In this document: piece after piece, positions 308-31,500 of the stretch | Layout of the letters: the number at the start of each line of letters is the position of its first letter | Numbering within the stretch: the first letter of the stretch is position 1 | Assembly (NCBI GenBank): GCA_958009085.1 | Contig: OY253677.1 | Coordinates: forward strand, 1-64,000 | DNA length: 64,000 nt | Source of the DNA: Protoeuglena noctilucae | Lineage: Eukaryota | Direction of reading: 5' to 3' | The notes under the pieces: generated by a model | The model's input: the letters and a program-made list of their open reading frames with translations, nothing else | Told to the model about the DNA's origin: nothing | Database searches by the model: none | Program-made: the position numbers and the translations under genes

Positions 308-3300
308 CTCTTGACGCTAAGTGGTACGGTGGCGCAAACCAGAACGGGAGCAACTTCGGCATTTGCGTCGACGTGTATGCCCCCGGATACAACGACTTTG
401 CGGCATGTTCAGGGTCCACCTTACATTGCGCGACAAGCAACACGTCCTACATTGGTGACACTGGGACGAGCATGGCGGCCCCCGTGGTGGCAGGCGAGTG
501 GCAAAGAGGGACTCTGCGGTCGACACTGCGGGGTAGACTAGCAGACGAACGAAGGAACAGCGACCTCCTCCCCGCCTTCCACCTCGCAGGCATCGCTGCG
601 ACCTACCTGGGCCACTCGCCTGAGATCGATCGCTTTGCGCTCAAGTACCTGCTGACCAAGGGCAGCGTGGACGCAGCGCGGGTGCCGCCGTCCGGTGCGG
701 AGGTCAGCTCAGCCACCAACCAGAACCTCGTCTACTCGCTGCCCATGTCCAAGGTGCGGGATAGACACACATGCTGCGCCGGGCAGGCATGCGAGGCCTG
801 CCAGGCCAGGCCATTCATCGCCACTGCCCTGCGCCGCCGCAGAGGGTCATCGTCGCTTCCAAGCAGTCCATTTCCATCACGGCGTCCAACATGGCGCAGC
901 AGACCTTCACGGTGGCCCTGGTGCGCGCCCCCGCGTCAGGGGCGACCGTGACGGTGACCCTGAGCGTGGACCCTTCCGACATCGGCATCACGGCGTCCTT
1001 CAGCTCGTCCTCTACCGTCACGAGGTGGGCAGGCGGGAGGCGCCTCGACGGGTTCGCAGGGACGCGATCATTAGACGCTCACCTGTCACGCTTCGCCCCT
1101 CACCTTCGCCGCAGTGCGACCTTCACCTCCTCCGACACCTCCGCCAAGACCGTCTACGTGACCTTCAACATGGACAGCTCCGTGGCCCAGCGCCCCCTCT
1201 GGAGCTCCTCGGGCGCCACGGGGTCCACGAGCACCGTGTCGACCGACCGCGCCAGGCAAATGGGCGATCCCGTCAACTTTGTCGTGATCCAGACGCAAGT
1301 GACGAGCGGGACGGACGACTTCCTGAACAAGGGCATCTACGCTGTGTCCCTGCTCGACAAGCGCGAGCCCTACGGCGACGAGCGCGGTGAGGATCGGGTT
1401 GCTGTGAAGTAGGGGCAAAGCGCAGGCAACTCCGTGGGCGTGAAAGCCATACCTGCGACCCCGCGCTCGCAGACAACCCATACGTGATCACGTCACTGCC
1501 GTTCAACGGCTTCATCCACATGTCGGCCTTGGGCTACAAGATCTACCCCGACGCCAACCCGCACGCGCCACTCAACGGTGATAACGTCGACAAGATCCCC
1601 GGGGACAATAATCGGTCCGCCTTCTGTGACAGCAAGACGGGGTTCTCTTACGACTCGGACATGTGGTTCGCATTCAAAATCAAGAGCACGTTTGACTGCT
1701 CGGGCGCCACGTCCGCGTCACGGTGCTTCCTGCGTGTCCAGACATGCTCGAACAGGACGCAGAGCACGTCGACGTTCTTTCGCGGGCAGCAGACCGGGTG
1801 AGCGTCGAGGGATGGGTGTGCGTTTCATGCGGGGCCACCCTGCGCCGCTCTGGCCGTCGTGATGGGCCCGCTGCCGCCTCATCGCAGGTTCGACACGGTC
1901 GTGGCCGTGGGCAAGTACGACCCGACCACTAACAGCACGACGCTCCTGAACGTCATCGGCACGACCTTGAACGGCTCTGCCACGTGCATCGACGACATGT
2001 ACGACTACGACGGGGGCATGTCCTGGGCTTGCCCGAGCAACCCTTGTGAGTGCCGCGCGTTTCGCTGGCGTGCATCGTGCCCATTTCCACCGCCACGCTC
2101 ACCGGGACCCCAGATGTGAGCGTCGTCGTCCCTCTCTTGGGCGCAGACGCGTCCGAGTGGCCCAGCACGTCTGGCGCGTCCCCCGGGGTCCTCATCAGCA
2201 CCGACACGTGGTACCTGGTCTACGTGGGGTCCAAGGTGCAGACCAAGGTTGGCCCGTTCTCGGTGGAAAACCTGGGCATCCGCATCGAGATCAACGACGG
2301 CACGCTGGTCGACTCCACCAACAGCCTGTACAACGCGCGCACCGTCACCAGCGCCGACATGGAGACGGCCTACCCGCTTTGGGAGACGGTGGCGACGCTG
2401 AGGGTGTCGTACTCCCTTTTCATGTCCTCCCTCATCTCTCCGTCCACCTCTCCGTCGTCCTCGACCGTGGCGATGCAAGAGCAGCTCCCCTACACCTTGG
2501 TCGTCACGATCCCAAACGACATCTACAGCGACGGCTGGCTCAAGTGCGTCAATGTGGATGGCAATTTGGTGGTCACGCCCAAGAGCGGCTCTGCCATCGA
2601 CAGCAGCACCCTGCGAGTCGAGTCGGTGGCTGGCAGTGAATTGGCAGGGTTCTCTTTGTTCGCCGGGGGCGTCTCCACGTCGTACTGGGTTGGCTTGACC
2701 AACTATGCAATCTACGCCCCGTCCTTCTCGATCGTGTCGAAGAACCTGTCTGTGAACACCACCTCGGTGCTCCACTGCACGACGGGGGGCAGCCTCGCCC
2801 CGCGTGACTACTACGTGACCTTCGCCATCACCGACTCATGGACGCCGTGCGCCGACGCATCCTGCTCAAGGGTGCTGTCGTCCGACCCCAACGCACCCGA
2901 CGTGGTGGCACCCGGCGGCACGCTCAACGTCTACGTCAGCAACGGGACCAACAGTCAGACGACCGACGTGTACCTGTACTTCGCCTGCGCAACGACGACC
3001 ACATGCCTCACGAACTTCACCGGCACTGGCCCGGACACGTACACCTCGGGCTCGACCAGCTACAAGGGCGTCAAGATCTCGGGCAGCACTGCAGCCTTCA
3101 CGGGCGTGTACGGGACTCCGATCGTCTTCACGGCCAACGCCTCAGCCAGTTCTGCCACGGAGTTGGTGACCATCCAGACGTCCAACACCGACTCAACGAC
3201 GCACCACCCATACAATGCCAACATCTATGTCCGGGTCAACGTGGCGACGGTGACGTTCTACAGCGACTCGACCGGTGCCACGGCCGTGTCGACCAAGAGC

Positions 3301-6300
3301 GCGTGGCCGACGAGCATCGCCGAGGGGGCGACTCTGACGATCTATCCCCAGGTCAACCAGAACCTGGCGGCGACAGGCACGGTGGCGTGCACGACGACGT
3401 CCTCATCCATCACGGTCGGGGGGGCACTGACGGTCACGATGACGGGCACGGAGCTGACGGGCGACAGCAAGTGGCACAGCGGCGGCGTCTACTTGAGCGG
3501 GATCTCCGTGACGGCAAACGCAGTGACGGCGGACACGGGCGCCCTCGCCATCACCTGCGCCGGGACGGGCGGGGTGGCCACAGATCAAGTGACGCTGTAC
3601 GTGCAGGTGGTGGCCAAGGAGGCCAATCTGTCGTACTCTTACATCTGCGACTACCCCAGCTGCCTGGTGGCGTCGTACGTCACCAATCCGGGCTGGCTCA
3701 AGTTCGGAACATCGGTCGGCACACAGACGTCGTGGACTGTCGGGCAGACCTTGCTGATCTACCCGATGATCGACCGGGACATCGACAACGACGGGACCAT
3801 CACCTGCTACGCATCATGGAGCGGCAATGACACCAGCAAGCCATACGCAGTGTTAGGGAGCGGGTCGACGTACTCGACTGTGTCCACGTGCACGAACAGC
3901 GGCGTATGCCAGACGACCTCAGTCACCCTCTCGGTCAAGGCCATATCGGGCTCGGAGCTGGCGTCGACGACGGGGAGCTGGAGGAACTACGGCGTGTACG
4001 GGACCCCCATGACGATCACGGGCCTGATGTATGCCAACACCATCACGGTCACCTGCAGGGGGAGCGGGAACGACTCGCTGTCCACGGCGCCCTACAACTT
4101 CTACGTGCTTTTCACGCCCGCATCGGGAGCAAATTGGGTCACACCCTTTCGCATGTACACGTCCAACACTTCTCCTCCCCCCGACTCCAGTGCGGTGTCA
4201 GTCAACCCGGCATACCCCACCTCCATACCCAGCGGTAGCACCATCACCATCTATCCGACGCTGCAGTCGAGTCTCCCCAGCACGTCAACTGGCGGCTCCA
4301 TCACGTGCTCCACGCTGTCCACGGCTTTCTATCCCGACGCTGGCAAGCTGACCGTCAGCTCCTCGACGCTAGCAGTCCCCGGCCCCGCAGCGTCCAACTA
4401 CGTCGCAAGCGATTGGAGCGGCACGACGTACACCAAAGGCGTGACAATAACGGCGTCGAGCGTGACGGGCGACTCGGGTGTCATCGGCGTCGCCTGCATC
4501 GGGACCAGCGGAGGTGCCGTGTACCCGGTGAGCCCAGCGGGCGTCTACCTTTACTTCAAAGTCAAGACGAGCCTTCCGGGGGTGACGTACTACAGCGACG
4601 CAGCCGGCACGGCGGCCGTGTCGACCAGCAGCATTGCCCCCACGACCGTCAGTGCGGGCAGCACCCTGACCCTGTACCCGAGCTTCAGCAGTGCTCCAGC
4701 CAGCTCGTGGACCGTCACGTGCACCAGCTCAGATACCGCGTCACTCACGGTCTCCAACTCAGGCACTCTGACAAGCACCAGCACGAGCGCGGGCACGCAA
4801 ACGACAGGGCTGACGTTGAGCGCGCAGGCCGTGACGCAGGACAAGTTTGTGACGGTCACCTGCACTGGCGATGGCTCAGTGCTGGCTAGCACCTCGGTGC
4901 AGCTGTCGTTGACAGTGCAGTCGGCGGCAGCAGTCTTCACTCTCTACAGCAGCAACACCACGGCGAGCAGCACCACGGCAGTCTCGACCGTCATCACCAG
5001 CCCCACGTCCCTGGCAGAGGGGTCGACGCTGACCATTTACCCCAAGGCAGATCGCACCGTCGCAGCCAACGGGACGCTGACCTGCACCTCATCCTCGTCT
5101 TCCCTCACCGTCCAAGGCAGCCCACTCACAGTGTCCTCCACCTCCAGCAACTGGGTCAATGGCCTGTGCCAGTCGGGCATTACACTCCAGGCACAGCAAG
5201 TGGATTCAGACACAGGGGCGACTGTTACGTGCTCGGGGGACGGGACGGGGCTGCAGTCGACGGCGGTGACGCTGTACGTGAAGGTGACGAACGTTCCGGC
5301 AGCGCTGACGTTCTACACGGACACGGGGGGGACGACGGGCGTGTCGACAGCATCAGGCACGTACACGTCTGTGACGGAGGGGGCGTCGGTGACGGTGTAC
5401 GTCAAGGTGGGGTCGCACATCGGGAGCGACGGGACGGTGACGTGCATGGTGGGCAGCGGGCTGCCGGTGACGCTGACGGGGTCGCCGCTGACGGTGGCCT
5501 CCTCAGCGAGCGCGGCGAGCGGGGCGTGGGTGTACACGGCGGGGGACATCACGGTGACGGGGGGCACGGAGAGCAGCGACACGACGGGGACGGTGACGTG
5601 CGTGGGGGACGGGACGGTGCTGTCGAGCACGGCAGTGACGCTGTACTGGAAGGTGGTGAACGTGGCGCCGGCCACGGTGACGTACTTCACGGACAGCGCC
5701 GCGACCCACGCGGCATCGGCGTCGTCGTGCTCGCCGACGGAGATCGGAAGCGGCCAGAGCGCGTCCTTCTATCTGAAGGTCAGCGCGGACATTGCGAACA
5801 ACGGCACGATCACGTGCACCACGACGGCCACCTCGTTGCAGCTGACCATCACCAACAGCCCGCTGACGGTGACGGCGATTAGCGGGTCGGAGGTGTCGGC
5901 CACGTCGGGCGGGTGGAACGCCGGGGTGTACCAGACGGGCATCACGCTGACGGCCGCGTCCTTGACGACGAGCTCAGGGTCCGTCTCGGTGACTTGCGCG
6001 GGGAACGGGGCCACGTTAGACTCGACGGCCGTGACGTTCTGGGTGGACGTGCAGGGCAGCAGCGGGGCCGGGGTGACGTACTACACAGACGCAGCAGGGA
6101 CGACCGCGGCATCGACGTCCTCGGCCGCACCCACCATCATCACCACGGGATCGAGCGCGACCCTGTACCCGAAGATCAACGCCAACCTGTCTGCAACCGA
6201 CACCATCATGTGCACGAGCTCGGACACGTCTGTGGTCACAGTGGGCAACAGCGGGAGCCTGACGGTGGCGGGGACGACGGACTCGGGGGCACAGCTGTGC

Positions 6301-8384
6301 ACCAGCGACACGACGTGGAAGGCGGGGGTCCAGCAGACAGGGATCACCCTGACCGCAGGCAGCTCGGCAGGCACTGCGACGGTCACTTGCAGCGGGGGCG
6401 GCACAGCGGTGTCATCCGTACCTACCCTCCTGTACTTCGCAGCGTCAACGCCATCTGCTGGGGCGACGCAGACAGCAAGCCCCACGCCAGCGGCAACTGC
6501 GACGGCAACATCCACGCCGACTGTGGCCACGCCTGCAGCGACTGCGACGGCAACACCCACGCCGACTGTGGCCACGCCTGCAGCGACTGCGACGGCAGCA
6601 CCCACGCCGACTGTGGCCACGCCTGCAGCGACTGCGACGGCAACACCCACGCCGACTGTGGCCACGCCTGCAGCGACTGCGACGGCAACACCCACGCCGA
6701 CTGTGGCCACGCCTGCAGCGACTGCGACGGCAACACCCACGCCGACTGTGGCCACGCCTGCGCCGACTGTGGCCACGCCTGCAGCGACTGCGACGGCAAC
6801 ACCCACGCCGACTGTGGCCACGCCTGCGCCGACTGTGGCCACGCCTGTAGCGACTGCGACGGCAACACCCACGCCGACTGTGGCCACGCCTGCAGCGACT
6901 GCGACGGCAACACCCACGCCGACTGTGGCCACGCCTGCGCCGACTGTGGCCACGCCTGCAGCGACTGCGACGGCAACACCCACGCCGACTGTGGCCACGC
7001 CTGTGCCGACTGTGGCCACGCCTGCAGCGACTGCGACGGCAACACCCACGCCGACTGTGGCCACGCCTGCAGCGACTGTGGCCACGCCTGCAGCGACTGC
7101 GACGGCAACACCCACGCCGACTGTGGCCACGCCTGCAGCGACTGCGACGGCAACACCCACGCCGACTGTGGCCACGCCTGCGCCGACTGTGGCCACGCCT
7201 GCAGCGACTGCGACGGCAACACCCACGCCGACTGTGGCCACGCCTGTGCCGACTGTGGCCACGCCTGCAGCGACTGCGACGGCAACACCCACGCCGACTG
7301 TGGCCACGCCTGCAGCGACTGCGACGGCAACACCCACGCCGACTGTGGCCACGCCTGCAGCGACTGCGACGGCAACACCCACGCCGACTGTGGCCACGCC
7401 TGCTGGGACTTCGATTGCAAGTTTAACACCTGCGGCTACACCAGCGGTGGTGGTATCGGCCTCCCCGACACCTTATTTTGTCCCCGCGTTCACACCTGCC
7501 GCCCCGCTTCCTGCAAAGCAACCTTCCCCCGCGACCGCTGTTTCTGGTTCAGATTTGGCAATCAACGTTTACTACGTCCTTCCCCAGTCGGATGCCGGCG
7601 CAGTTACTCTTTCCTCCATAAAGGAAAGCGTTCAGGCCGAACTCTCTTCTCTTACAGCTTATCGTGTCGTCGACGTCACAGTGTATCTCTCTCCCCCCAC
7701 TGGCCGCAAGCTAGCATCAGACGCTGGCGACGCAACCCTCGTTGCGTCTGTGAAGCTCGAGGCCAAGGACAGTGTCTCATCAACCTCGCTCGCGCCCATG
7801 AGCGCCGTCAGTGCGGTCCAGGCTGGGGTGGAGAAAAAGTTACAGGGCGTCGTGACTTTCCAGAGGGGCGACCCTCCGTATGCCATCGAGCAATCTGCCC
7901 CCTTTTCTCCCCTGGCAAGCCCGGCGCAAGTGAGGGTAAGGGTCGACGCTGGCTCAGCCCGGACGCACTGCTCACCTGCAGCAAGGAAGTCTCATCGTCC
8001 CCGGCCTGTGACACCCGCAGGCTCGCCAGGGTCGCCCGCCCGCACTCCCGACGCTGCCCTTCGCAGTTGGCGTGCCGTGCGTCGTGGCAGCGCTCGTCGC
8101 AGCCACCGGTGCCGTCGTGTACGTCCGCCGCGGCAGAGGCCGCGTCACTGCCGAGGGTGAGCCCTGCCACGTCTCACACCTGCACATGCAGCCAGGGATG
8201 CGCTCAAGCAAAGCATGCCCTCGGTGGTCCCCTCGCAGTGTGTGAGGACGTCCCATCGGTGCACATGTCTACTCCAGCGCCCCCTCCTGCACCCCCTCCC
8301 CCCGTGGAGCCTTACATGGCCCACCTCGAGGCGTATTTGATGTGGGACGATGAGCCAGGCGCTTCTCAAGTACCCTCTAACTAA
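308..8384 (+). CDS. 5'-truncated giant type-I membrane protein: C-terminal half of a subtilisin/proteinase-K-like (S8) domain, ~9 beta-rich ~120-aa repeats, mucin-like Thr/Pro/Ala stalk, SEA-like region with RKL motif, TM helix, short tail
   Basis: Exon 308-493 reads SNFGICVDVYAPG...GTSMAAPVVAG and splices to IAATYLG (S8 catalytic Ser motif). Introns at 494-589 (GC-AG), 754-843, ~1025-1114, ~1387-1472, ~1798-1887, 2046-2145, 7930-8020, 8157-8238. Large exon 2146-7929. TM segment LPFAVGVPCVVAALVAATGAVVYV followed by RRGRGR at ~8057-8140; stop TAA at 8384. Confidence 0.85.
6481..7405 (+). repeat. Coding minisatellite: 45-nt unit (TPTVATPAATATATP) interspersed with 21-nt subunits (PTVATPA); mucin-like stalk
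   Basis: Near-identical repeats of ACGCCGACTGTGGCCACGCCTGCAGCGACTGCGACGGCAACACCC, in frame with the 2036-aa ORF. Confidence 0.95.
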
Positions 8385-18472: not shown

Positions 18473-18930
18473 GCCTGCTTTGGCTATCTCGACTGGCAGG
18501 AGATGGGCTGCTCGGGGACGCACTCGCAAGCTGCCGCACGGGATTGGGCGAATGCCACAAATCGCGCGCCGGACAGCGAGCGATTGCGGTGAAGTCGACA
18601 GCCTGAGGTCTCAATGTGGCTGCAGGTCTGTCAGAGACAGCTGGCTTCAAAATGCACCAGACAAATTGTGCTTTGAAAGCTCCAAGAGGGCTCAGAGTGC
18701 TACGCTGCCCCTCAATGCAGTGACTGCCACGCCGACTCCGAGGGCAGCGCTCATGAATAACCCATGCAGCCCCAGCGAGATGGCTCGGATGGGCTGCCGG
18801 CAGCAACGTGACGACGCCAACCTCAGCCCTGCTCGTGCCGCGTCCCCCATAGTTCGGCACATCACACCCCCCCCCACCCCCCGCACTTCTTTCACCCGGC
18901 GTGCGCCGGGTGGGACTCTGCCAGCCCCAC

Positions 18931-19521
18931 TCACGCGGCGTTCTTCAGGGCCGTGAGCTGGTCCAGGAGGTCCTGCAGGGCGTGGTCGTCGATCTGCTCC
19001 GGCGTCAGAGACGGCGCATAGGCACGCGCTTGCGAGGGCAGCTCCGGCAGAAGCGTGCCGATGATGGAGCCCTGAGAGCGGGGCAAGGGCCGAGTTGCAT
19101 ACGTCAACACAAAACCAGAGGCTCTGCAGAGAGCCAGCAAAGGCGCAACGCACAATGGCCGTGAGAGTCGCAACTCCCACCTGGGTCTCCGTCAGCCCCG
19201 CTCGCCGCATGACGTCCCGCGCCTGGGTGCAGAGGTGGTCGTCGGGGAACTCGCGCACGGCCAGCGTGTAGACCCGCGCCTGCTCCAGAATCTCGCTCGT
19301 CCGGAAGTCCGGATCACGCTTCTGCGCGGGGGCAACCGGCGGGCTGAGAGGCTGCGGCGACGGCCTGGCCGCAGCGCCGCGCACGCGAACGACGCCCCCT
19401 CCCTGCTCGCCTGCTGCGTCTTAATGTGCTTCTCGATGACCAGCGCGACTTCGCTGGCGAAAAAGGTGTTGGCATTCTCGAATCGCGCCGCGATCTCCGC
19501 CTCGTCCTGCGTGGTGGCCAT
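18931..19521 (-). CDS. RPB4: RNA polymerase II subunit RPB4-like, 3 exons
   Basis: FENANTFFASEVALVIEKH|KRDPDFRTSEILEQARVY...GLTETQ|GSIIGTLLPELPSQARAYAPSL...IDDHALQDLLDQL matches the RPB4 pattern, somewhat divergent. Confidence 0.8.
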
Positions 19522-19799
19522 GGCGGGCGACGCGGATGGCCCCTCCCGCGTTGTCACGTCTCCGCGCGGGAAGGCGCGCCCATCGGTGACATCCTGGCGC
19601 TGGCGTGGTGAGACGAGGGGGCCAGCGTGGTTAAACGGCTCACAGCCGTCGCCAGTCTCTGGCGGTCCCGACGCAAGAACTGCCCCAGTCTCGCCGCCTT
19701 CACGCGGATGGACAGCGCTCTTAACACAAATGTTGCGCGTCTCCTTTCCTCGTCTTCAACCTGCCCCGACGCTCATCGAAGCGCCTTCCCTCCCCCGCG

Positions 19800-20775
19800 A
19801 TGCCGCCCGCACCGTGGAAGGCGTCCGTGCAGGCTTCCCTGAAGGCCAATGGCCGTCATATGCCGTACGCCAAGTACTTGCAGCTAGCGACGGTGCGGGC
19901 GGACGGAGCGGGGCCGGCCAATCGCACGGTTGTGTTCCGGTGCGTGAGATGCGCGCGTGCTGTCCCGACCCAACACCCTGTGGGTCCACCTGGCGTGCAA
20001 CACACATACTGCCCACCGTGCTACCCCCTCTGCGCGACCAGAGACTTCCTTGGGGACGCGAGGGACGAGCTGACGTTCGTGACGGACGCGCGCAGCGGCA
20101 AGGTGGCGGAGGCGGGGGCGTGCCCGTGGGCCGAGGTGGCGTGGTACTTCCCAGGGACGCGGGAACAGTACAGGCGAGGGGCACGGATGGGTGGACTATG
20201 GCTGAACAGCGCAGGGCAGGGCAGTCCCGGTCACACCTGCCGCGTGCCCCGCTGCCGCACAGGATCTACGGTCGCCTGTCCGTGGTGGGCGCGGGGGGCC
20301 ACGCGGGGCAGGAGTGGCCCGGGAGCCCACCCCTGGGGGAGCTGCAGTCGGCGCGGCGGGGCGCGTGGGCGCGGCTGTCGGACGAGGCACGCAAGCAGTT
20401 CTGCTGGCCGCAGCCGGGGGCGGGGCGCGAGGCGGACGACGCGGCCTTCACAGGTGGGGGTCGGTGTGAAGAGTGTGCGGGCGGGGGCTGTGTCGGGTGC
20501 CATGACCTGTCCCCCGTGTGCCCCTGCATGCAGACCCTCCGGGGGTGCCGGGGGCGGGGGAGGACCCCGCGCGTCACTTCTGCCTGGTGGTGCTGTGGCC
20601 GGTGCAGGTGGACCACCTGCAGCTGCGCGGCAACCGGAGACACATGGTGCGGGGGAGGCGGCTGGCATGCGTGGGTGTGGATGGCCATGAGTGTAGGCAC
20701 CACGGCACCTCCCCCGTTCCGCAGTACACGCGGGTTGAGGACGGGAGCTGGGCCAAGCGAGCCGTGAACCCCTGA
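19800..20775 (+). CDS. Pyridoxamine 5'-phosphate oxidase-like FMN-binding protein (alr4036-type PPOX family), 5 exons
   Basis: YLQLATV...PANRTVVFR|DFL...FVTDARSGKV...AEVAWYFPGTREQYR|IYGRL...AWARLSDEARKQFCWPQPG...HFCLVVLWPVQVDHLQLRGNRRHM|YTRVEDGSWAKRAVNP*. Confidence 0.9.
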
Positions 20776-21626
20776 CAGGGACATGCGTGGTTACAGCCTG
20801 CCATTATTAAGAGAAACAGCCTTGAGTCGCGGCAAATGACACTATTGGCGAAGGGCTGCTAGGTCAAAATGCCAGTTCTGCGCGCTCGCTCACTCAAACG
20901 CATGCATCTGTCGACTGGTAGGCTGATTCTCATTTATCTGCCGTGGAAATGCAGCTTCATTGGCTTTCGACTGTTTTGAGATCGATTGTTTAATCCGGAC
21001 TCATCTCAAGCGCGTTAGAAGGCTCCTTCGCACGGGAGATCGTTTACAGCGGCTCACGTGAGATAGATTTGCTACTCGCGACCATCGCCGAGAAGGGGAG
21101 CCCTGAAAACCCTTTTCCGGGCTGTGCGGAGGCCTACAAGCACCCTCCTCAGCAGTGCTTCGCTGTAGTGAGAAACGTCCAGACACTCTTGCGCTGGTGA
21201 GGTGCGGAGAACTTATGCTTGCCGCGTGGGCCCTATAACTCCTTGCATGCAACAACATGATTGAGGCTGATTTGCGCGCGCAGAGCGGGGCGGCTTGGGC
21301 GAGACCCCGGTGCATCTTAGATATCTTCGTACGAGCAATCGACAGAGTAGGCGATTTGACCTTCGCGTCGCTCAGAGGGAGAGTCAAGCCTAGGCGCCCT
21401 ACTTCCCGGATCGCTCCTCCAGCGGTGCCCCCGCCGGCGTCGGCTGGTGCCGGTCCTCGCTTTCAGAGTGAGTACACAACGCATCCAATGCTTCGCATTA
21501 CTGCATGTTGTGGAAACGTGCAAACGCTTTATCAGAGGACCCAAACCACAGACGCCATCTTCTGCAGGGTCCTCTGAGGCCTGTTTTGTGGTCTTACCTG
21601 GCTAAGTCAAGCTTACGAGCACAGAC

Positions 21627-24600
21627 ATGTCTGGTTTGATTCTCCGCGCCGGTGTCCCGGACCCGGAGATGGGCAAGAACTGCTGCTTCGTGAGCACGGC
21701 AGCACGACTCGTCACGAGCGGTCCCCTTCTGCGGTAAGCTGCCCGTAATGTGTGCCATGAACACAAGCAGGCAAGTACCGGACCTGATATTTATTCGATC
21801 GGTCCACTCTTGCCGTCTTTGCAGTGCCTGCATCGACAAACTGTCCAATTTGGACGCTTCAGCCTCCGACAAGCGAGCGTCGGCGGCCTCCATGCTGCTG
21901 ACAGTCCTCACGGTGAGTGATTTTGCCGCTCCTGTACGTTCGCGCACGACTTTCTCCTTACCCCTGGTCCTGCACAAGGTGCCGTAGCGTTGCCGTGGCT
22001 TGCAGGGGGTGGTGGGGACGTTCTCGACGCGCGAGTACATGGACGTGGACGAGTACAAGGTCCTAATTGACAAGCGTGAGTGCAAGGGAAACCAGGTACA
22101 CCATGTAAGCTCTAGCGAATCCAGCGCCAACCAGAAAACCCCCACAACATCGTCCGCAGTCTGCTGGGCCATGCACGAGGCCTCGCTTGTGGGGCACGGG
22201 GACGACGGGTGCCAGCGCTTATCCGCCAAGATCATCGAGCACCGGCAGGAAAACAACTTGTCCGAGACGGTCGACCTCGTCTTTGCAGCTGTCGAGGCCG
22301 TCATGGGTGCCCCCGGGCTCGTGCTTGTAGCGACACGGGTCTGCTTGATCGCGGACGATCTCATGCGTGGGGTGAGCAGAGTGGCGGGGAAGGCGCTGGA
22401 TGCAGAGACTTCGCGACATGCACCCTATCTTGCGCGAGACCAAACATCGTGGCCGTTGCTGCAGGGTGTGGAGAGCAGCCAGTACTACAACGGAGCAACG
22501 GACATCGTGTCGGCCTCCATTGGCTATGACGAGGCGACGTTGTCAGAATCGCACGACCGCAGGAAGAGCGCTATCCAAACCCTGGCCTCGCTGTACGAGC
22601 CGCACGTGAGGGCCGCGTCGCTTTGCTAGGCAGGGAATGATGTTGAATGGTGGCTGGCTTGGAAGTGGAGGTACCAGCTTGGATATGGAGTGAAAGGCAA
22701 CTACATCGCGCCTATACCGCAGGGAGCGCACCTGCTGGCTCTCGGCGCCTTCAACAGTGACCAGAGGCACTACGTGTCCCTGGCCCTCCGGAACGGCACC
22801 TGGTTCCTTTTCGATGGGCCCACCGCCAAGGCGAGTCGCGCTGCTGTGATGCTGAGGCAGAGATGGGCATCATCATTTGCATGCCTGCGTCGACATGCGT
22901 ATGTCACCCGACAGTGCCTGCAGGATCTCGGCAGCTGGGACAAGGCTGTCCAGTACCTCGTCAACAAGCGCTTCGTCCCTTGGGAGGCTCTTTATGAGAA
23001 GAGCAACGGAGAAAGCGCTGGCTTGCCGGCCTCCCCAAAGGCGGTCATGAAGCAGGCCGAGAAGCGCAGGGCACCGCAGGTCGTGTCAGTGGAAGTTGTC
23101 CGCCGCCCTCGTGTTGCTGCGAAGCGCAGCTTTCTCACGCCTTCACAAAACGTTCGTGGGGAGCAGGCGAGGGCAGGGCAGCGCTGCAGCAATGTACCTG
23201 TTACTTGGCCAGGCGTGCTTGTATTGCGTCTAAAGCAGTTGGATTTAAAGGGTATAACATATTTCATTTGGTCCCATTCGCAGGCGACGCCCGCGTTTTC
23301 ATCGGTCGCGGACACGGTGGCAGAGGAGGCTCCGGCTGCATTGTGCCCGGTGCCCCCCTCCATGGACTGGGACGGCCGCCACTACACCATCATCTCCTCC
23401 GACTGTCCCGACATTGGCATTCCGATCCGCAGCCCAGCCAAACGGTCGGGAACCCGCCGCGCTGCACAGCACGACATGTCAGGGGGCTTGCTGGGTCTAT
23501 TCTTCGGGCCCGGCGCTGTGGGACAGGGGCATCAAGCGCAAGGGCGCGACGCTCACGTCGATGGCAGTGGGCGCGTGACACTCAAGCAGGGCAGCCCCGT
23601 CGTTGGGCCGGCCCCGAGTCGGTCCCTGCCCTCGAAGCAGCGCCGCCGGATGCCCTGCGCGGTCGAGGATTCCGATATGGAATACCCTCACGCGAGTTCA
23701 GCGAAGGAGGGCAGTGTACTCTCGACATGGCAGCGGCATCAGCCCGCGAGACGCGAGCGAAATGGCCGCTTCTCCCTGACCAGGCGGCCGACGGGAGGGT
23801 CGGTGACGGATACCGACACAGCATCACTGGGGAGCCCCTCCTCGTCTGGGAGCTCGCGTGAGCGCTGGCGGTCTGCCGACAACCGATTCGACATGCTCGC
23901 CGACAATCTCTCTCTGCTCCCGGAAGCGGCAAAGGAAGACGAGCGCTTGGGGCGGGACATGAGCAGCGCCGCGCTTCCTGTCGCGCCCGAGAGCAACCAC
24001 CATGGACAGCGACAGCACGACGTTTTTACTGGGAGAAAAGTCTCGACTGTGCTTCAAACGTCGTTACGGCGGGCAATGTCGGCTCGTCCGGCACTCAGGC
24101 TCCGGGGGGGCGGCGGCGACCCACCAAGCTCTCCATCGTCTGGCGTCGACATTTTAATGGCCGGTGCTTCCACTAACGAAGCGGCTGTTGACGAGTGTCC
24201 GAGGTGCTGCAAGAAACGGCAAAAAAACTGGCAGCGGTCAGCCGAGGGGCGGCAGGGTTGGCAGTGGGGGTGGCAGTGGGATGGGGCTGACGGAGCCGAA
24301 ACGGGGCCGCGAGAGCACGGCAGATGAGACTGATCCAAAGCAAGCGAGGCTGACGGAGTTCTATAAACAGTCTCGCAGCGGCTTCATGATGAGCAAAGCA
24401 GCAAACGCCCCGGTGGCCATGTCAAGCCACGCAGTCATCACCCAGCCTTCGCCTTCTTGCGTTGGCGACACCATTGGCAGTAAGGAAAAACGTGCTATCG
24501 CCGTTTCCGACAGCGAGGATTCAGACGAGCACAGGGGCAACAAAGGGCTCGCTCAGTGCAGCACTGGCAAACCGTTGCACGTGTCTGGCAACCCGTTGCA

Positions 24601-27600
24601 GGCGCGCGTCGATGTTCCAATGGCCGATGCTTCTACCGACGGCGCAGCTGTAAAAGGCTTGACGAGCGTCCAAGGTGTCGCAAACTCCGGCAAGTAAGGT
24701 GGCCGCGGTCGGCGGCGGGGCAGCGGGGCTGGCGGGGGTGGCAATGGGACAGGCCCGGGGGGGCAGAGAGGACAGAAACGGCGGCATAAAAGCACGGTAA
24801 ATGAGATTGGTCCAAAGCAAGCGAGGTTGATGGATATTCTCAAGCCATCTCCAAGCGGCTTTGTGCTGAGCAAGGCAGCGAAAAGCACTGCTAAGGTGTG
24901 TAGCATCGGCAGCCTTCCGCAGCGCTGCATGACGTGTTGCTGCCAGCCGCAGCAAATTTTGCGACTTGCCTGTTTCCATGCTGCATTGCAGGTGGCCACG
25001 TCAAGCCATGGCGCTGTTGCCCAGCCTTTGCCCTCTGGCAGTGGTGGTGGCATGGAGGAGCGTGTCATCGCCGTTTCCGACAGCGAGGATTCAGACGAGC
25101 ACAGGGGCAACAAAGGGCTCGCTCAGTGCGGCACTGGCAGGCCGTCACACACCTCTGCTGGGGGTACATTACAAGCGCCCTCTGCAGCAGGCAGAGTGTC
25201 AGGGCAAATGCACGGAACACGTGGACACGACACACACGAGGGGGTAAACAGCATGGCTAGACAGGATGGCGACGGGAGTGGCACACAGGGGAGCATGCAG
25301 GGTACGGTACCCTCAGAGCGAAAAGACGTGGGCCCAAAAAGGGCTGGGAAGAAAGAAAGAACTTCTACATCTGTTACACTGATACTGCAGCCTGCCCAGG
25401 TCATGCGATTTCGTGAGCAATATACGGAGAGCTGCAAGAGGTGCAAGGATTGCAAGCACCCAAAGAGGCCCACTCATCAGGCAACAAGATCATATGGCCT
25501 GGCCTGCGTGCCCAAGAAGGGCGGTATTTGGGAAAGGGAGGAGCATAAATGGGTCAAAGAGAGGATGTGTCAGAAGTGCAGGAAGAAATTTGAGACGACA
25601 ACGGGTGTCAAACTGACCATTATGGTGTTAACACGATTGTGCGATGACCCTATGTGCGTTACGCAGGGCCAGAAGTGCGAATCACAATACTCAGATAAGG
25701 ATCACGAACCTGAGAAAGAGGACCAGCGGGAGCCCAATCGTTGGTGCGCAACACACCGGCCAGAGGGCTTCTTTCCTCGCAACGGGTCCTGCGAAGAGTG
25801 CTATCAGAGCTGGAAAGAGGGAAAGCAAGAAAGACCCTTTTCAGCAAGTTTTGGATATCCCAAAGACAACCAAAACGCAGTGACTCAAACTGGCAAAGCG
25901 ACATGCTGTGCGACGCATCAAAAAGAGGGGATGGAATTCTTGAGACAGTACAAATGTGAGATATGCAAAAAACGTGCAAACTACATACCAGAGAACGGTT
26001 ACCAGCCTACACGTTGTCATAAGTGCAGAGAAAAAGATGTGAGGTATTACGATGTGCGGAACGGGCGATGCTTCACGCGAGGGTCTCCTAGGCAGCCTGT
26101 TTGGGACTGCCACCAGACAGGTCGAGCTGAATACTGCACAAAATGTGCTGATGATTTTCCCAACCCCGTCAGGAAACGTTTCTACTCACGTTGCAAGTCC
26201 GATGGGTGCCGAGTGCAACGATCGTATGGCAAGCGCACAGGCAGGGTGTTGGAATACACCAAGATGGGGCCCTGCAGCCGAAGTGCCGACTGTCTGCGAC
26301 AGCCATAAAGAAGACGGTATGACGGAGCACACCAACATAAAATCCGGCAAGGCTAAAGCAACCCACTGTGCCTCTCACGGCCGCGAGCTTGGGATGCGGG
26401 ATGTCCGCAACAAAAGATGCGAGGGAATGGGGGAGTTAGGGCCCTGCACAGTTGTCCTCCCGCTCTTTGGCTGGAAGGGTGATGTGCCTCGGTTCTGCGC
26501 CAAGCACAAGAAGGACGGCATGGTGAACTTGCTGTCGCCCCGCTGCGTCAAATGTGAGGAACAGGGGGTCATCAAGTGCCCTTGCTACGGAAATGAGGGT
26601 GGGCGGGGAACACACTGTGCGTCATGTGCCAGGGTGCTCAACGAACAGAGAGCTGAGGCAGGGGAACCGCTTTGGTGAACGTGGTGACGAAAGGTTGTGC
26701 CCACGCCGGTTGCAACGTCAGGGGCCCTGTGTGGGGCAAGTTCGATAAAAATGGCTCACCGGCACGTGGGAAACGGTACTGCTATGAGCATCACAAGGAT
26801 GAGGCAGGCCTGGTCAACATTGCGGTGCGCATGTGCGAGGTGACCATCGAGCGCTTGGCGTCTCTGGCCGAAGAAGCTGCTGCTACCATGGACACGCTTC
26901 CCTGTGAGCAAAAGGAACTTATCGTTGCAAACATCGTCGCGTGGGTGCGAGAGGTCACACAGATGTTCCCGCATGCTGCAGTGTATGTCTGCGTCAGTCA
27001 CTCCTTGCGTGCACTGGTTGAGATAGGCAACACTCCATTCACCAGTCAGCACTTCGTAGACAAGTCGGGGAAAAAACAGACCAATGCCGACCTCTCGTTG
27101 AGCAAAGCCATCAAGTTGCACGGCGCCAAGCAGGTGGTGCTGGCGGTCACGGTGACGCCGGAGGATGCCAATGGCATCGAGAGAGCTGTGCAAGAGGCTC
27201 TCCACGATGAGCTCGAGCCTGGTCTTGGTGCTGATGGTAAGCCACGCGCCCATCGCCTGTGGCGTAGGCCAGGAGCTGGAGGTACGCGGAAGCCTGTTCG
27301 CATAGCGGACCTCGCCTGTGTGAGGTACATTGTCGGCGCGCTCGTCATACCAGGGGGCGACCCGCCAGGCACGGCTTTTACGCTCAGCGAAGCGTCTGCG
27401 GACCGGCAGAATGCCGAAGACAGGGCGAAGGCTAACGTTGGCATGCAAGTCCAGGGGTCAGAGCTGCCCTTGCCAAAGCTCGTTTTCCTGCCTACGGGGA
27501 CGCACGTGCAGCCCAGCGGAAGCGTGCAGTTCCAGGACCCTGCCAGCGGCAACGTGGCACGCAAGCGGCTCATGGCGGACGCTGAGCAACTGCAGGCCAT

Positions 27601-27895
27601 GTACAAGAACATGCTGACATTCCGCGCCCTGGCCGGAGAAAAAGCTGTGAAAGCCAAAAGCGACGAGGCAGGCGAGGAGGTGGATGAGGCAGGCGACGAG
27701 GTGGACATGGACATGGAGACGCTGTTTGAGGTCGCACTGGAGGAGACTCGCATGGGCGAGGAGACGACGGCGGAAGAGATGGGCATCGACATTGGCATGC
27801 TGCAGCCTGCCGAGGAGGGAGATTCCGATGAAGAGGACAACGAGGATGGACAGAGCGACTCTGACGGAGAGGGTGACGCAGAACAGCGAGCCTGA
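21627..27895 (+). pseudogene. Composite gene with lesions: USP53/54-like C19 peptidase, disordered linker, LRLRGG, duplicated linker, EsV-1-7-type Cys/His repeats, GIY-YIG-like domain, acidic tail
   Basis: Cys box GVPDPEMGKNCCFVSTAARLV (~21651-21713). YNGATDIVSASIGYD. His box RHYVSLALRNGTWFLFDGPTAK|DLGSWDKAVQYLVNKRFVPWEALYEK. LRLRGG at 24094-24111. Repeats such as PRFCAKHKKDGMVNLLSPRC, THCASHGRELGMRDVRNKRC, YCYEHHKDEAGLVNIAVRMC. Lesions: 7-nt deletion ~24188, TAA at 24695, frameshifts ~26265 and ~26672. Confidence 0.75.
24157..25140 (+). repeat. Imperfect tandem duplication inside the composite gene (copy 1 ~24157-24570; copy 2 ~24620-25140)
   Basis: Identical 60-nt block GCCGTTTCCGACAGCGAGGATTCAGACGAGCACAGGGGCAACAAAGGGCTCGCTCAGTGC at 24500 and 25070; alignable upstream sequence. 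Confidence 0.9.
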
Positions 27896-28037
27896 CGTAC
27901 GTCTGGCGGGTGGTTTGGACCAGGGGCGACGATGGTTTTTGCAGGCAATGTTGGGCATACAGGACCAACCCTCTCCGCTGTCCCGCCTGGCAAGGTAACA
28001 GCGCTAAGCGCTGAGAGCATGACTGAATGGCTTGCGT

Positions 28038-28328
28038 GATGGTGTTTCTGTGGCTGAGCAGCGCAGGGCAGGGCTGTACCGGCCACACCTGCCGCGTGCC
28101 CCGCTGCCACGCAGGATCTACGGTCACCTGTCCGTGGTGGTGCTGTGGCCGGTGCAGGTGGACCACCTACAGCTGCGCGGCAACCGGAGACACATGGTGG
28201 GGGGCAGGCGGCTGGTTAGGGTGGGGTGGAATGGCGTGAGTGTAGGCACCATCCCCGGCACCTCCCCCCTTCCGCAGTACACGCGGGCGGACGATGGGAG
28301 CTGGGCCAAGCGAGGCGTGAATCCTTGA
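28038..28328 (+). pseudogene. Duplicated 3' fragment of the PPOX-like gene with an internal deletion
   Basis: Aligns to 20186-20288, then jumps at GTGGTG microhomology to ~20586-20775. Retains the last intron and YTRADDGSWAKRGVNP*. Confidence 0.92.
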
Positions 28329-28527
28329 CCCCCCGACGTGCATGCGTAGTCCAGGCCTTGAATATCGCGGCGGATGACACACAGCAGAACAGCAGATGCA
28401 GAGCTGGCGCAACAGGCGATGCCATCCGACGAGGAACCCCGCAGCTCAGATGTCCCATGCACGTCAGCTAGTGAAGCGTGCCGACTGTTGCATGGCTCAG
28501 CCACTATGCAACCCCCCACTCAGCCCC

Positions 28528-31500
28528 TCATCCACTCTGCCCCACTCTGCCCCTCATCCACTCTGCCCCCCCCGGCCCCCCTCCGGCTCGGGTACCGCGG
28601 TGGCGCCCCCACAGCCGCGGCCTCCTCGGCGTCTCCCCCGGTGCGCACCACCACCTTGGAGCGGGGGGACGCCTGGGGGGAGGCGCGGGGGGACGCCTCA
28701 CGCTTGACGCCACGGGGGGGGGCGGCCTGCAATGACAGAGGGCAGAGGGGAAGGGTGGCACTGACAGCTGCACAGGCATAAACACAGGCACTGTCAGCCT
28801 TGCTCTGCTCTACCACCACATAGCAGCACCCACTCACCCGTGATCCCCCCCCTGCTGCCGCATTCCGCCCCCCCCATCTCCTCCTCTGCCCCAGACGCCC
28901 TGGCAGCCCGCGTCGCCTCCCCCCTCACGCGCCGCAGCCGGCCCAGGGCAGCCGCGCGTGCCCCGTGCGCCAGGGATGCGAGACCCGCATCACTGGGGTG
29001 CCTGGGCGACGGCGGCGACGGTGGCGACGGCGGGGATGGCGCTTCATGGGTGGCAGAGTGGGTGGCGGAGTCGAGGGATGCGCGGATGGGGTGGGATGCC
29101 ATGGCCGCGGGGGGATGGGTGGCGTGTTGGCCGCGTGGCTGGCCCACCTCACGTGCGGCAGCGTGACCCCCTCGGGCATCTGCGCCAGGGAGAGGTCCAC
29201 GCGCCACTGGGCGGGGCGGGACTCCAGGCGACGCACCAGGTCACGCAGGCGGTGAATCTCCACGTCACGCTCCTGGAATGGCACGGGGGGGAGAGGGGCA
29301 GGGTGTCATGGCCAAGGGCTGCGTGCGCGTGAGGGTGACCATTGCAGCCACTGCCCTGTCCCTGCCTCGCCTCGAGTGCTTTCACCGTGGCCGCTGCCTC
29401 TGCCCTCGCGGCCGCCAGTTCCCTCCCCAGGGCATCGGCGCGGTCCTCTGCCTCACGCCTGGCACGGCACAGGGACTCGACGTCACTGGCAGTCAACTCC
29501 TGAGAAAGAGGGGTGGAGAGGGACAAAGTCACGAGCAAGCAAGCTACGCCCATACTCGCAATCCCTCACTCCCCCCCCTCACTCACTCTGCCACCCGCAC
29601 GCCCCCATCCACACTCCCACTCCCCCTCACCTGTGTCGCTTCCCCCTCCCACTCCCCCCTGGCCCGCGTCAACTCCGCCCTCAGCGTCTCCACCTCATCG
29701 CGCAGATCCCCGCACTGCCCACACGCGGCCCCCGCCAGTGCCAGTGCCGATGCGGATGCCGGCCGGCGCGGTGCCACACGGGGAGTGGGGGTCACGGTGG
29801 CGGGGCCCTCGCGTGCCGTGATCTGCTTGGCCCTGCATGGGGGGAAGAGAGCATGCAGTTGCAGACGAGCAAGCAATACGCAACGATCGGCAGCCGTCTC
29901 TCATCCCACTCTCTCTGCCCTCATCACTGTCTGCTTAGTGCCACATGCACCCCACCCCTCACCTGTCTGCCCAGTGCAGCGTGTTGGCCGTCTCCGGGAG
30001 GGCGGAGCTGGAGGGCGACACGTTGGCGATCATGGAGGTGCGGCAGTCGCTGCCCAGGGAGTCCTTCAGCAGCTTCGTCAGCTTGGAGTTGCGGTAGGGG
30101 ATGTGGCGCTTGCCCTGCGAGGGGGGGACGTGTGAAGCGTGGGTGCGTGCTAAGTGGCAGACACCACGAGTGTTGCCATGCCCATCCCCTGCCACCCTCG
30201 CCTCCACGAGTGCGGATATGCAGCTGGACAGCGCCAGCAGTGACCGGTTGATGTTGGCGCCCTCCACCGTGCGCTGAGAGCGTGCTTCTGTAGCCACGTG
30301 GCGCTCGGACCCCGCCAGGTCCACCAGGGACTGCGAGAGGGAGAGAGATGGGGGTGTGAGATGATACGACAGATGCACAGATATACACACATGCACGGCA
30401 TCCTGCTCCCTCACCAGGTTCCCCTCCGCGCCCCCCCCCATGGCCACGTGCACCTGCAGCACCGCGTGGGACCGAGACGACGTGGCATTAGAGCGGGTCT
30501 CCTCGGTGGTGCGCCTGGGGTGGAAGAGAGAGAGAGTGGTCACACAGTCGCATCAGATGCCACGGCTGCGACTGTTAGCATGTCACCACCCCCTGCTGTG
30601 CTGAACAGGAACCCCCCCCCCCCCCCTCTGCTCGCCTCTGGTTTCCCATGTGCAGCAGCTGTATGACCTCGTCTGCGCTGCGGCACTCGTAGTGCGTGAG
30701 GCCAGGCACCACCGTGCCGTGCTCCCCCTCCCGGATGTCCAGGGCCTTGCCGGGGTTGAGCAGGTCACGCACCGTCTCGTTGTAGATCTGGGGAGAGGGA
30801 GAGAGTGCTGATGCGGTGACCGTCATGCCAGTCACAGTGCGACAGCTCCGTGGAGATGTGATCCTAGCTGAGACCCATAAGACAGCGCTTGCCTTACCCC
30901 TCTCCGCATGGCCCACCTCGACATATTACAATCACCAATCATGGATCACCACGACTCACCTCCAGATATGACAGGCGCACGTCCACGGACCGCGGCCCGT
31001 CCCCCGCCTTGGCAAAGAGGTCCCTCAAAGCGTGGATCATCACCCCGGGCTCCTCGGGCGTCCCCAGCATGGTGTACGTCTGAGAGAGCACGGGGCAGGG
31101 ACACGGTCGCGCCACACCGCGCATGCTCGACATGGATGCCGCACCCGCCCACCCGCAGCCGCACGCACCTTGCCCGCGCCCGTCGCGCCGTAGCAGAAGC
31201 AGCAGGCGTTGTGGCCCAGGAGCACCTGGTCCACCAGCGGCGCCGTCGTCAGCGCGTAGACCTCGGCCTGCCGCGACGCGGGGCCAAACACGGCGTCGAA
31301 CGTGAAGCTGCGGCAGCGCAGGCGGTTCTGGCGGAGGTAGTCGCGCTCCTCGCAGAACTCGGACAGCAGCACGTGGCGCTTCTTGTCCTCCTCCACGCAG
31401 GGAAAGGCGTCCTGGTCGCGCTCCCGCTGCCCCAGGGGGCGTACCCGCACAAACACGTTGACGCGACCCGTGTCGAAGGAGCGGCGCGCCGAGGGGGCGG

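Follow-up and report, generated by a model that had tools for sequence, protein, structure and literature searches.

A 7.25-kb segment of lowered GC content in the genome of Protoeuglena noctilucae carries an expressed gene in which an array of EsV-1-7 cysteine-rich repeats lies between a peptidase-like N-terminal domain and an orphan C-terminal domain. It raises the question of how such a gene came to stand where it does: as a mobile or virus-derived module, as an earlier note on this DNA had proposed, or as a gene of the host itself. The segment was analysed within a stretch of 64,000 nt, hereafter the window (assembly GCA_958009085.1, contig OY253677.1, positions 1-64,000, forward strand). 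The preferred reading, to which we assign a probability of roughly 0.55, is that this marine eukaryote, whose genome is rich in GC and in introns, has a lineage-restricted nuclear gene here: an old, single-copy, probably giant-virus-type capture, later intronised and connected to host transcription, and not an active mobile element.

The boundaries of the segment are still legible in the DNA. GC content per 1-kb window is 0.53-0.65 at 21-28 kb, compared with 0.67-0.69 on either side. At 100-nt resolution, the left edge is a sharp step, from 0.67 at 20700 to 0.51 at 20800 and 0.45 at 20900, and GC content recovers at the right edge at ~28050-28200. Introns inside the insert have a GC content of 0.49-0.62, versus 0.67-0.72 in the introns of the adjacent pyridoxamine-phosphate-oxidase-like (PPOX) gene (Pfam Pyridox_oxase_2, 70.2 bits in 19725-20690), and the insert exons are also GC-poor relative to PPOX. 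A direct repeat flanks the segment, aligning in three stretches: 20196-20288 corresponds to 28048-28140 (91% identity), 20573-20685 to 28123-28235 (87%), and 20700-20776 to 28253-28329 (88%). The left copy of this duplicated host segment (20196..20800, plus strand; repeat families D2, D4 and D5, alignment and RNA joints) contains the PPOX-like 3' exons, their introns, the stop codon (TGA ending at 20776) and ~25 nt of flanking DNA, and the likeness of the two PPOX 3' copies extends ~25 nt beyond the stop codon. Since the GC step coincides with the inner ends of the direct repeat, the insert can be placed at 20801..28047 (plus strand, 7.25 kb), ~25 nt past the PPOX stop. The lower-GC segment between duplicated host DNA that had been claimed earlier is thus real.

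The right copy (28048..28355, plus strand), defined by the repeat alignment and RNA contig X10-5, is shorter and now serves as the 3' untranslated region (UTR) of the inserted gene. No Pfam family matched it (28023-28328). Relative to the left copy, 302 bp are gone (20289-20572 compared with 28140/28123), between short similar motifs (..G-T-G-G-T-G..), a loss that looks like a microhomology-mediated deletion. The duplication was originally about 0.6 kb long, and its two copies have diverged by ~10%.

The most securely identified part of the gene is the repeat array (25430..26840, plus strand), delimited by Pfam PF19114, by a viral single-repeat hidden Markov model (HMM) and by inspection of three reading frames. 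[quoted passage not shown] The Ectocarpus protein IMMEDIATE UPRIGHT is an EsV-1-7 protein, and one family member therefore governs early development. PF19114 scores 61.7 bits (cut-off 25) in two stretches of 26043-26678 and 25.9 bits in 25400-26308. The single-repeat HMM, with 39 positions built from 394 giant-virus units, finds ten units in 25733-26836, six of them at E≤0.001, which bears out the earlier recognition of these repeats. Weak units occupy frame 2 in 25733-26236, and the best units lie in frame 0 at 26241-26324 (12.2 bits), 26343-26420 (15.0 bits) and 26457-26546 (33.9 bits). A further unit is split, its first 24 positions in frame 0 (26553-26621) and its matching end in frame 2. 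The last complete unit (26696-26836) is also in frame 2, and it and the end of the split unit fall within 26666-26836. A 412-codon frame containing the C-terminal domain follows the array in frame 2. Database cluster members of the gene are near-identical population variants. One of them, P0006, a variant of 26675-27895, differs by a single residue, a Cys to Trp change at the first cysteine of the last repeat. PMC7457493 describes EsV-1-7 genes as patchy among eukaryotes and present in several viral genomes, and bioRxiv 10.1101/2024.02.19.579948 reports a family hugely expanded in brown algae, with one or no member in most other stramenopiles.

Giant viruses encode similar arrays. A scan of IMG/VR with a degenerate repeat-core pattern returned at least 127 stretches, and the counts that follow are among these matches. 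The matched loci contain 1,055 open reading frames (ORFs) of at least 80 amino acids, at least 143 of which bear the motif. Viral tails of at least 120 amino acids after the last motif (51 distinct among the matches listed) form a single similarity cluster with a conserved consensus, including D-E-N-Q-H and N-P-D blocks. In four viral examples, no Pfam family other than the repeat was found over the C-terminal domain. An EsV-1-7 array followed by a C-terminal effector is the standard giant-virus architecture, which makes a giant-virus-type origin the most likely one for the gene described here. One 420-kb giant-virus record (95% complete by CheckV) encodes an EsV array, a T5orf172 protein (56.6 bits) and a ubiquitin-specific peptidase (USP; 169.5 bits) as three separate genes, so that a single viral gene pool contains all three domain types proposed for this locus.

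The gene is transcribed and spliced. Contigs from three metatranscriptome runs and one DNA run were aligned to 18500-31500. The RNA evidence consists of assembled contigs, and all figures refer to the joints listed. Six plus-strand GT-AG joints occur in RNA and are absent from the DNA run (21195>21283, 21467>21568, 21732>21824, 22075>22160, 22370>22464 and 27992>28113). Most listed joints are present in two RNA runs and one in three. Intron sizes are 84-120 nt in the insert gene, compared with 78-102 nt in PPOX, where RNA supports joints 20450>20531 and 20645>20724 and the GC-AG joint 20169>20259. In the host sequence, less than 1.2 kb contains two GC-AG introns supported by RNA (19322-19410 on the minus strand and 20174-20262 on the plus strand). 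Their presence in both PPOX and the upstream minus-strand gene identifies GC-AG splicing as a host habit. A comparison of 14 introns against the window for introner-type repeats gave matches solely between the duplicated PPOX segments.

Both ends of the transcript can be traced. The 5' UTR exons (20887..21626, plus strand; RNA contigs of runs X9 and X10) are separated by introns 21197-21283 and 21468-21567; contig X9-24 begins at 20887, and the first ATG, at 21627, has an in-frame TAA ahead of it at 21603. An exhaustive phmmer search of 1.84 billion representatives retrieved three proteins, every one from this locus. P0003 is a 213-residue database protein from a 1,142-nt Joint Genome Institute (JGI) contig and is the exact spliced product of the first exons. 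It additionally proves a sixth intron, 21913-22005, which removes TAG 21985. Transcription and host-type splicing, for which the earlier note had suggested consulting RNA, are therefore evident in both the RNA contigs and P0003. At the 3' end, an intron at 27995..28114 (plus strand; joint 27992>28113 in X9 and X10) takes its donor from the insert and its acceptor from the PPOX duplicate: the acceptor context resembles that of PPOX 20262, and the 3' part of the intron is 93% identical to PPOX intron 20174-20262. Contig X10-5 extends 295 nt beyond this joint into the right copy. With the transcript continuing into the copy and the duplicated acceptor in use, the new gene has made the duplicate its own 3' end. 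RNA depth in X9 is non-zero in 30 of 30 bins; gene parts lacking RNA contig cover in some runs were not counted as evidence. One RNA contig of run X10 (depth 3.5) links 29033 back to 23308 with eight unplaced letters between, and is probably an assembly chimera.

These observations suggest a sequence of events. One or more giant-virus-type genes would have been captured once by non-homologous insertion, the 7.25-kb segment entering ~25 nt past the PPOX stop and duplicating ~0.6 kb of the PPOX 3' end. The right copy would later have lost 302 bp and now provides the transcript with its 3' end and with a splice acceptor; the captured coding sequence would have become intronised. PMC12993054 describes algal endogenous viral elements whose viral genes are heavily intronised and transcribed. 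In the resulting protein, the array may act as a zinc-dependent targeting module and the C-terminal domain as an effector; the N-terminal domain may be a peptidase of the papain-like kind, or a decayed form of one.

Several results weigh against such a capture or the gene structure that goes with it. High intron density and host-type splice sites equally fit a native gene. A search of viral contigs, which needs shared 8-residue words, found no relatives of the repeat ORF, P0001 or P0003. The C-terminal ORF scores 2.6 bits against an HMM of the 51 viral tails, with an hhalign probability of 0.06%. PPOX relatives on three metagenome loci (41-65% identity), the material for an empty-site test, gave no match to the window's neighbouring ORFs (8-42 kb); synteny is not kept at that distance, and the comparison is uninformative. 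P0003 terminates at TAG 22627, its transcript reading through the predicted donor at 22606, so that the intron 22606-22722 is unproven; codon 213 could be the last of the ORF. A single transcript spanning the whole gene is putative.

The rival that best survives these points, at about one chance in four by our own reckoning and hence unlikely, is a native, fast-evolving host gene in which the low GC is local and the flanking repeat an ordinary local duplication. Introns of the GT-AG type, and probably of the GC-AG type, at high density in a transcribed and spliced gene are what it predicts, and neither viral relatives nor hallmark genes were found in the searches of viral contigs and of the insert. 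Other 1-kb windows of the contig also drop to a GC content of 0.59-0.61. Against it stand the GC step, which on either side falls within ~100 nt of where the duplicated PPOX segment ends, and the lower GC of both exons and introns relative to PPOX. The patchy occurrence of EsV-1-7 genes, shared with viruses according to PMC7457493 and bioRxiv 10.1101/2024.02.19.579948, also counts against it.

Combining the supported introns with six predicted ones yields an 11-exon model with an open frame of 1,186 codons, from ATG 21627 to TAA 26306 (stop ending at 26308); everything beyond the joints supported by RNA or P0003 is prediction. The N-terminal exons on the plus strand are 21627-21733, 21825-21912, 22006-22075, 22160-22371, 22465-22605, 22723-22830 and 22924 onward, with introns 1-4 supported by RNA joints and P0003. 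The first predicted intron (22606-22722, GT-AG, 117 nt) would remove TAG 22627. Two predicted GC-AG introns follow, one of 93 nt (22831-22923, donor AAG/GCGAGT, acceptor GCAG/G) and an in-frame one of 117 nt (23167-23283, donor CAG/GCGAGG, acceptor GCAG/G). The GCGAG donor of the PPOX GC-AG intron is reused by both, identically at 23167. The earlier description of these two as host-style introns holds insofar as they are well formed and a GC-AG intron in PPOX is supported by RNA; neither is among the RNA joints listed. Further downstream, all on the plus strand, lie predicted introns at 24204-24378 (175 nt; the end of RNA contig X9-26 falls at 24204, where a splice branch would put it), 24694-24855 (GTAAGG donor, removing TAA 24695, with a weak AAG acceptor) and 24896-24991 (96 nt; RNA contig X10-2 starts at 24990 with 33 unplaced letters).

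The in-frame stops at 21985, 22627 and 24695, and the frame change at ~24200, are explained by introns at these places. The earlier statement that the gene is now decaying was accordingly too strong, as most of the frameshifts and all three in-frame stops lie in introns, but two frame breaks persist inside the repeat array, each beside a run of four G. DNA contigs from another sample (X7 records 19 and 20) agree with the window letter for letter at both sites, as does RNA contig X10 record 3 at the first; the window differs from the reads at some homopolymers, such as 29108, yet not at these two. At the second break, the halves of one repeat unit lie in different frames only ~45 nt apart, which leaves no room for an intron as long as those observed. 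Introns at 26039-26120 (82 nt) and 26576-26661 (86 nt), within the host size range, would restore the frame to 27895 and would delete recognisable repeat positions. The candidate GTGAG donors in the array (25956, 26039 and 26554), which fall on Cys-Glu or Asp-Val-Arg codons, are doubtful. The downstream frames are long (211 and 412 codons), implying that any break is recent or bypassed. We favour real frameshifts and a truncated product; two further short introns and an intact product of ~1,700 residues are the somewhat less probable solution.

A second rival holds that two adjacent genes have been misread as one: a USP-like domain with its linker, ending at 24327, and the repeats with the C-terminal domain. 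The 565-codon frame does stop at 24327, joining the halves needs the predicted 175-nt intron at 24204-24378 together with the weak AAG acceptor at 24855, and none of the contigs listed spans the junction. This separation nevertheless appears improbable, clearly more so than a native origin, because the predicted donor is exactly where RNA contig X9-26 stops (24204), the model is frame-consistent, RNA depth in X9 is non-zero in all bins, and both duplicated modules share one exon-intron layout.

These modules form an internal tandem duplication of an exon-plus-intron unit (24283..25270, plus strand; repeat families D1 and D3, 72-85% identity, and tblastn), with copy A at ~24283-24700 and copy B at ~24760-25270. 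Copy B contains a 96-nt GT...AG stretch at 24896-24991 that copy A lacks to the letter (24412/24413), and the stretch has no other match in the window; it is a putative intron gained or lost after the internal duplication.

The N-terminal domain comprises ~270 residues (21627..23040, plus strand; RNA joints, P0003 and predicted introns) and displays USP-type motif blocks: a Cys-box-like motif N-C-C-F-V-S-T at 21678..21698, with its second Cys at 21684; a His-box-like motif H-Y-x9-W-F-L-F-D at 22768..22815, with its Asp at 22813; and a GSWDKAV...P.EALYE block at 22930-23010. Together with LRLRGG in the linker, all are found where they had been reported. Three patterns, N-[TSC]-C-[FY]-x-x-[ST], H-Y-x(6-14)-W-x-x-[FY]-[DN] and LRLRGG, were scanned in the six-frame translation of the window. 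Each occurs once, on the plus strand, in the coding frames of the gene and in the canonical order. Mean counts in 100 dinucleotide shuffles were 0.02 for the Cys box, 0.01 for the His box and 0.11 for LRLRGG, figures that are indicative only, since the patterns were written post hoc from USP signatures. Three ordered single-hit motifs are unlikely to have arisen by chance.

Homology searches do not extend this likeness. Neither UCH nor UCH_1 (PF00443, PF13423) was matched in Pfam at E≤10 by the read-through, P0003, P0004 or the His-box exon; PHROGs gave nothing relevant for the N-terminal part; phmmer against the PDB at E≤10 returned no USP; and phmmer against the 1.84 billion representatives returned the gene's own ORFs only. 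The protein Atlas, a language-model tool, ranked UCH_1 and UCH clusters second and fifth, with scores of 0.84 and 0.83, below its threshold. A viral USP HMM was built from the two of seven giant-virus records with PF00443 (169.5 and 171 bits), using the best 80 of 550 relatives (599 candidates), or 73 distinct sequences. On the spliced N-terminal model it gives -1.6 bits with the His box alone aligned, a score reached by 37 of 1000 shuffles (p ~0.04), of which 464 were reported at all. BLASTP of this model against viral USP gave a best E of 0.42, with the aligned pieces outside the motif blocks. An AlphaFold2 (AF2) model of P0003, computed without an alignment and covering the domain without its His-box half, is all-helical, with a predicted local distance difference test (pLDDT) score of 52. 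Foldseek against the PDB and the VIA wide search returned generic helical matches alone (best Z 10.2 over 93 residues), so that no fold can be assigned to the domain. A complex prediction on three N-terminal pieces scored 0.09 against a mark of 0.34, giving no verdict either way. The assignment to USP53/USP54-type C19 peptidases made earlier thus retains its collinear short motifs and a sub-threshold Atlas lead, and lacks any match in Pfam, the PDB or the 1.84 billion representatives. The domain resembles USPs in its motifs; its membership of the family is possible at somewhat less than even odds.

The linker that follows (23041..24203, plus strand) is rich in Ser, Ala, Arg, Gly and Pro, contains LRLRGG at 24094-24111, and is recognised by its composition and by the 565-codon open frame (ORF 22630-24327) that it shares with the His box. 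Its ~400 residues are probably disordered. RNA contigs cover 23376-24204 with no splice within. Direct reading of the sequence revealed no ubiquitin-like domain before LRLRGG.

Downstream of the array, the orphan C-terminal domain (26843..27442, plus strand; ~200 residues) has no family match and displays a hairpin-like motif, V-Y-V...E-I-G-N-T. It is followed by an acidic tail (27650..27895, plus strand; ORF 26657-27895, stop codon 27893-27895), recognised previously, whose final 82 residues are 40% Asp plus Glu. The sole repeat reported by Tandem Repeats Finder is a 21-nt unit in this tail. Three word-indexed searches of 5.8 billion clusters with the C-terminal ORF (at near length, longer, and with residues 1-290 without the acidic tail) retrieved the gene itself only. 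The domain had no match in Pfam or PHROGs at E≤10 or in the PDB, and the GIY-YIG/T5orf172 profile (PF10544) was unmatched. Atlas leads to T5orf172, MUG113 and GIY-YIG reached 0.88-0.89 by features and a TM score of 0.35-0.39 by structure, all sub-threshold. The T5orf172 relatives collected from a viral match came from five near-identical loci, too narrow for a profile. An AF2 model made without an alignment has a pLDDT of 39. The compact alpha/beta domain described earlier therefore corresponds to a low-confidence model, and the GIY-YIG-like nuclease to a hairpin spacing and sub-threshold T5orf172 leads with no profile match.

A third rival returns to the strongest claim of the earlier note, an autonomous selfish or mobile module in which a USP would cut after LRLRGG and free a repeat-guided nuclease from a self-processing polyprotein. 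Its appeal lies in the Cys box, His box and LRLRGG, which one gene holds in the right order and which the window shows nowhere else, and in motif blocks collinear with those of a real viral USP, echoed by the Atlas ranking of UCH clusters. Against this stand the absence of UCH in Pfam and of USP in the PDB, both at E≤10, an HMM score of -1.6 bits that 37 of 1000 shuffles equal, a domain ~125 residues shorter from Q box to His box, and no ubiquitin-like domain before LRLRGG; self-processing was pure inference and is not supported. The frame into the supposed nuclease is broken or relies on unproven introns. Nor does the insert resemble a mobile element: tblastn found no second copy in the window, no inverted repeats of at least 40 nt occur in 18-31 kb, no terminal repeats were found at the insert, and Pfam revealed no transposase, integrase or viral hallmark gene in it. 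Beyond EsV-1-7, none of six plus-strand pieces and none of 16 further insert ORFs on both strands matched Pfam, and no Rfam family was found in 18-31 kb. The search of viral contigs by 8-residue words likewise found no relatives. With flanks ~10% diverged as well, carriage by a selfish element is very improbable. Its most elaborate form, a virus-derived 'programmable' selfish gene whose minimal USP cuts LRLRGG to free a zinc-repeat array fused to a GIY-YIG-type nuclease, with the 0.6-kb duplication as a homing-like scar, is the least probable of all the readings.

The surroundings of the insert are those of a cellular genome. A kinesin gene (145 bits, Pfam) lies downstream on the opposite strand. 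Six of the 25 long ORFs elsewhere in the window have a Pfam family, including kinesin, protein kinase, ankyrin, cyclase and GTPase, all ordinary cellular ones, and no viral hallmark was found among the 25. A 2,036-codon open frame at 2050-8157 (plus strand) has a coding-like third-position GC content of 0.79 and no Pfam family at E≤1e-4. In the kinesin 3' region, all four runs (three RNA, one DNA) have one G more than the window behind 29108, which is either a one-base assembly error or a fixed strain difference. Contig depth spikes in the bin 28916-29349 alone (560 in X11 and 127 in X7); this bin encodes a simple Gly/Asp-rich repeat, and the spike probably derives from contigs of other organisms.

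EsV-1-7 is a large family shared between giant viruses and a few algal lineages, of which this locus is an isolated, expressed and heavily intronised member. Its insertion scar is still legible in the step of GC content, in the host 3' end that was duplicated, and in the reuse of that duplicate as acceptor and 3' UTR, and it would be a clean example of how such a gene is captured and joined to host transcription. If the peptidase-like and hairpin-motif domains are real, they would be new enzymatic partners for the array and would strengthen the idea that it is a targeting module. With the enzymatic assignments unproven and the gene possibly partly broken, its value is moderate.

Four known systems can be set beside the gene. 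The C-terminal domain shares with the T5orf172/MUG113 families (PF10544, PF13455) the spacing [IV]-Y-x12-I-G-x-T, which equals that of the giant-virus T5orf172 protein (L128, 56.6 bits). In the GIY-YIG family, a basic residue after the I-G-x-T block is catalytic; the one that follows I-G-x-T in the viral protein has no counterpart here. The N-terminal domain resembles USP/UCH peptidases (MEROPS C19, PF00443; giant-virus USP L132 and L133) in its Cys box, Q-x-[DN]-..-E, H-Y-x9/10-W-x-x-F-[DN] and P-[WY]-x-x-L-[FY]-x-K blocks, which occur in the same order with similar spacing, and N-C-C-F-V-S-T is by eye collinear with M-G-N-T-C-F-V-N-S of the viral USP. In contrast to these enzymes, the domain lacks ~125 residues that separate the second block from the third, namely the finger and some of the palm, and no profile or pairwise score is significant.

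Compared with other EsV-1-7 proteins (PF19114), including IMMEDIATE UPRIGHT and the brown-algal expansion, the array likewise consists of tandem Cys/His units of ~38-45 residues and scores above the Pfam cut-off. It differs in that the repeats are degenerate (the best at 34 bits and several below 8 bits with the viral HMM) and lie within a protein of ~1,200-1,700 residues, between a peptidase-like domain with its linker and an orphan domain. The databases searched hold no relative with this combination of domains, in line with its being unfamiliar to the earlier note, and the examined part of the literature using the term 'EsV-1-7' contains no mention of such partners. A further parallel is found in the giant-virus array proteins of IMG/VR. 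Their genes are free of introns, they lack a long linker and any peptidase-like part at the N terminus, and their C-terminal effector domain is a different one, but they share with the Protoeuglena gene the same layout, a repeat array followed by a C-terminal globular domain of ~200 residues.

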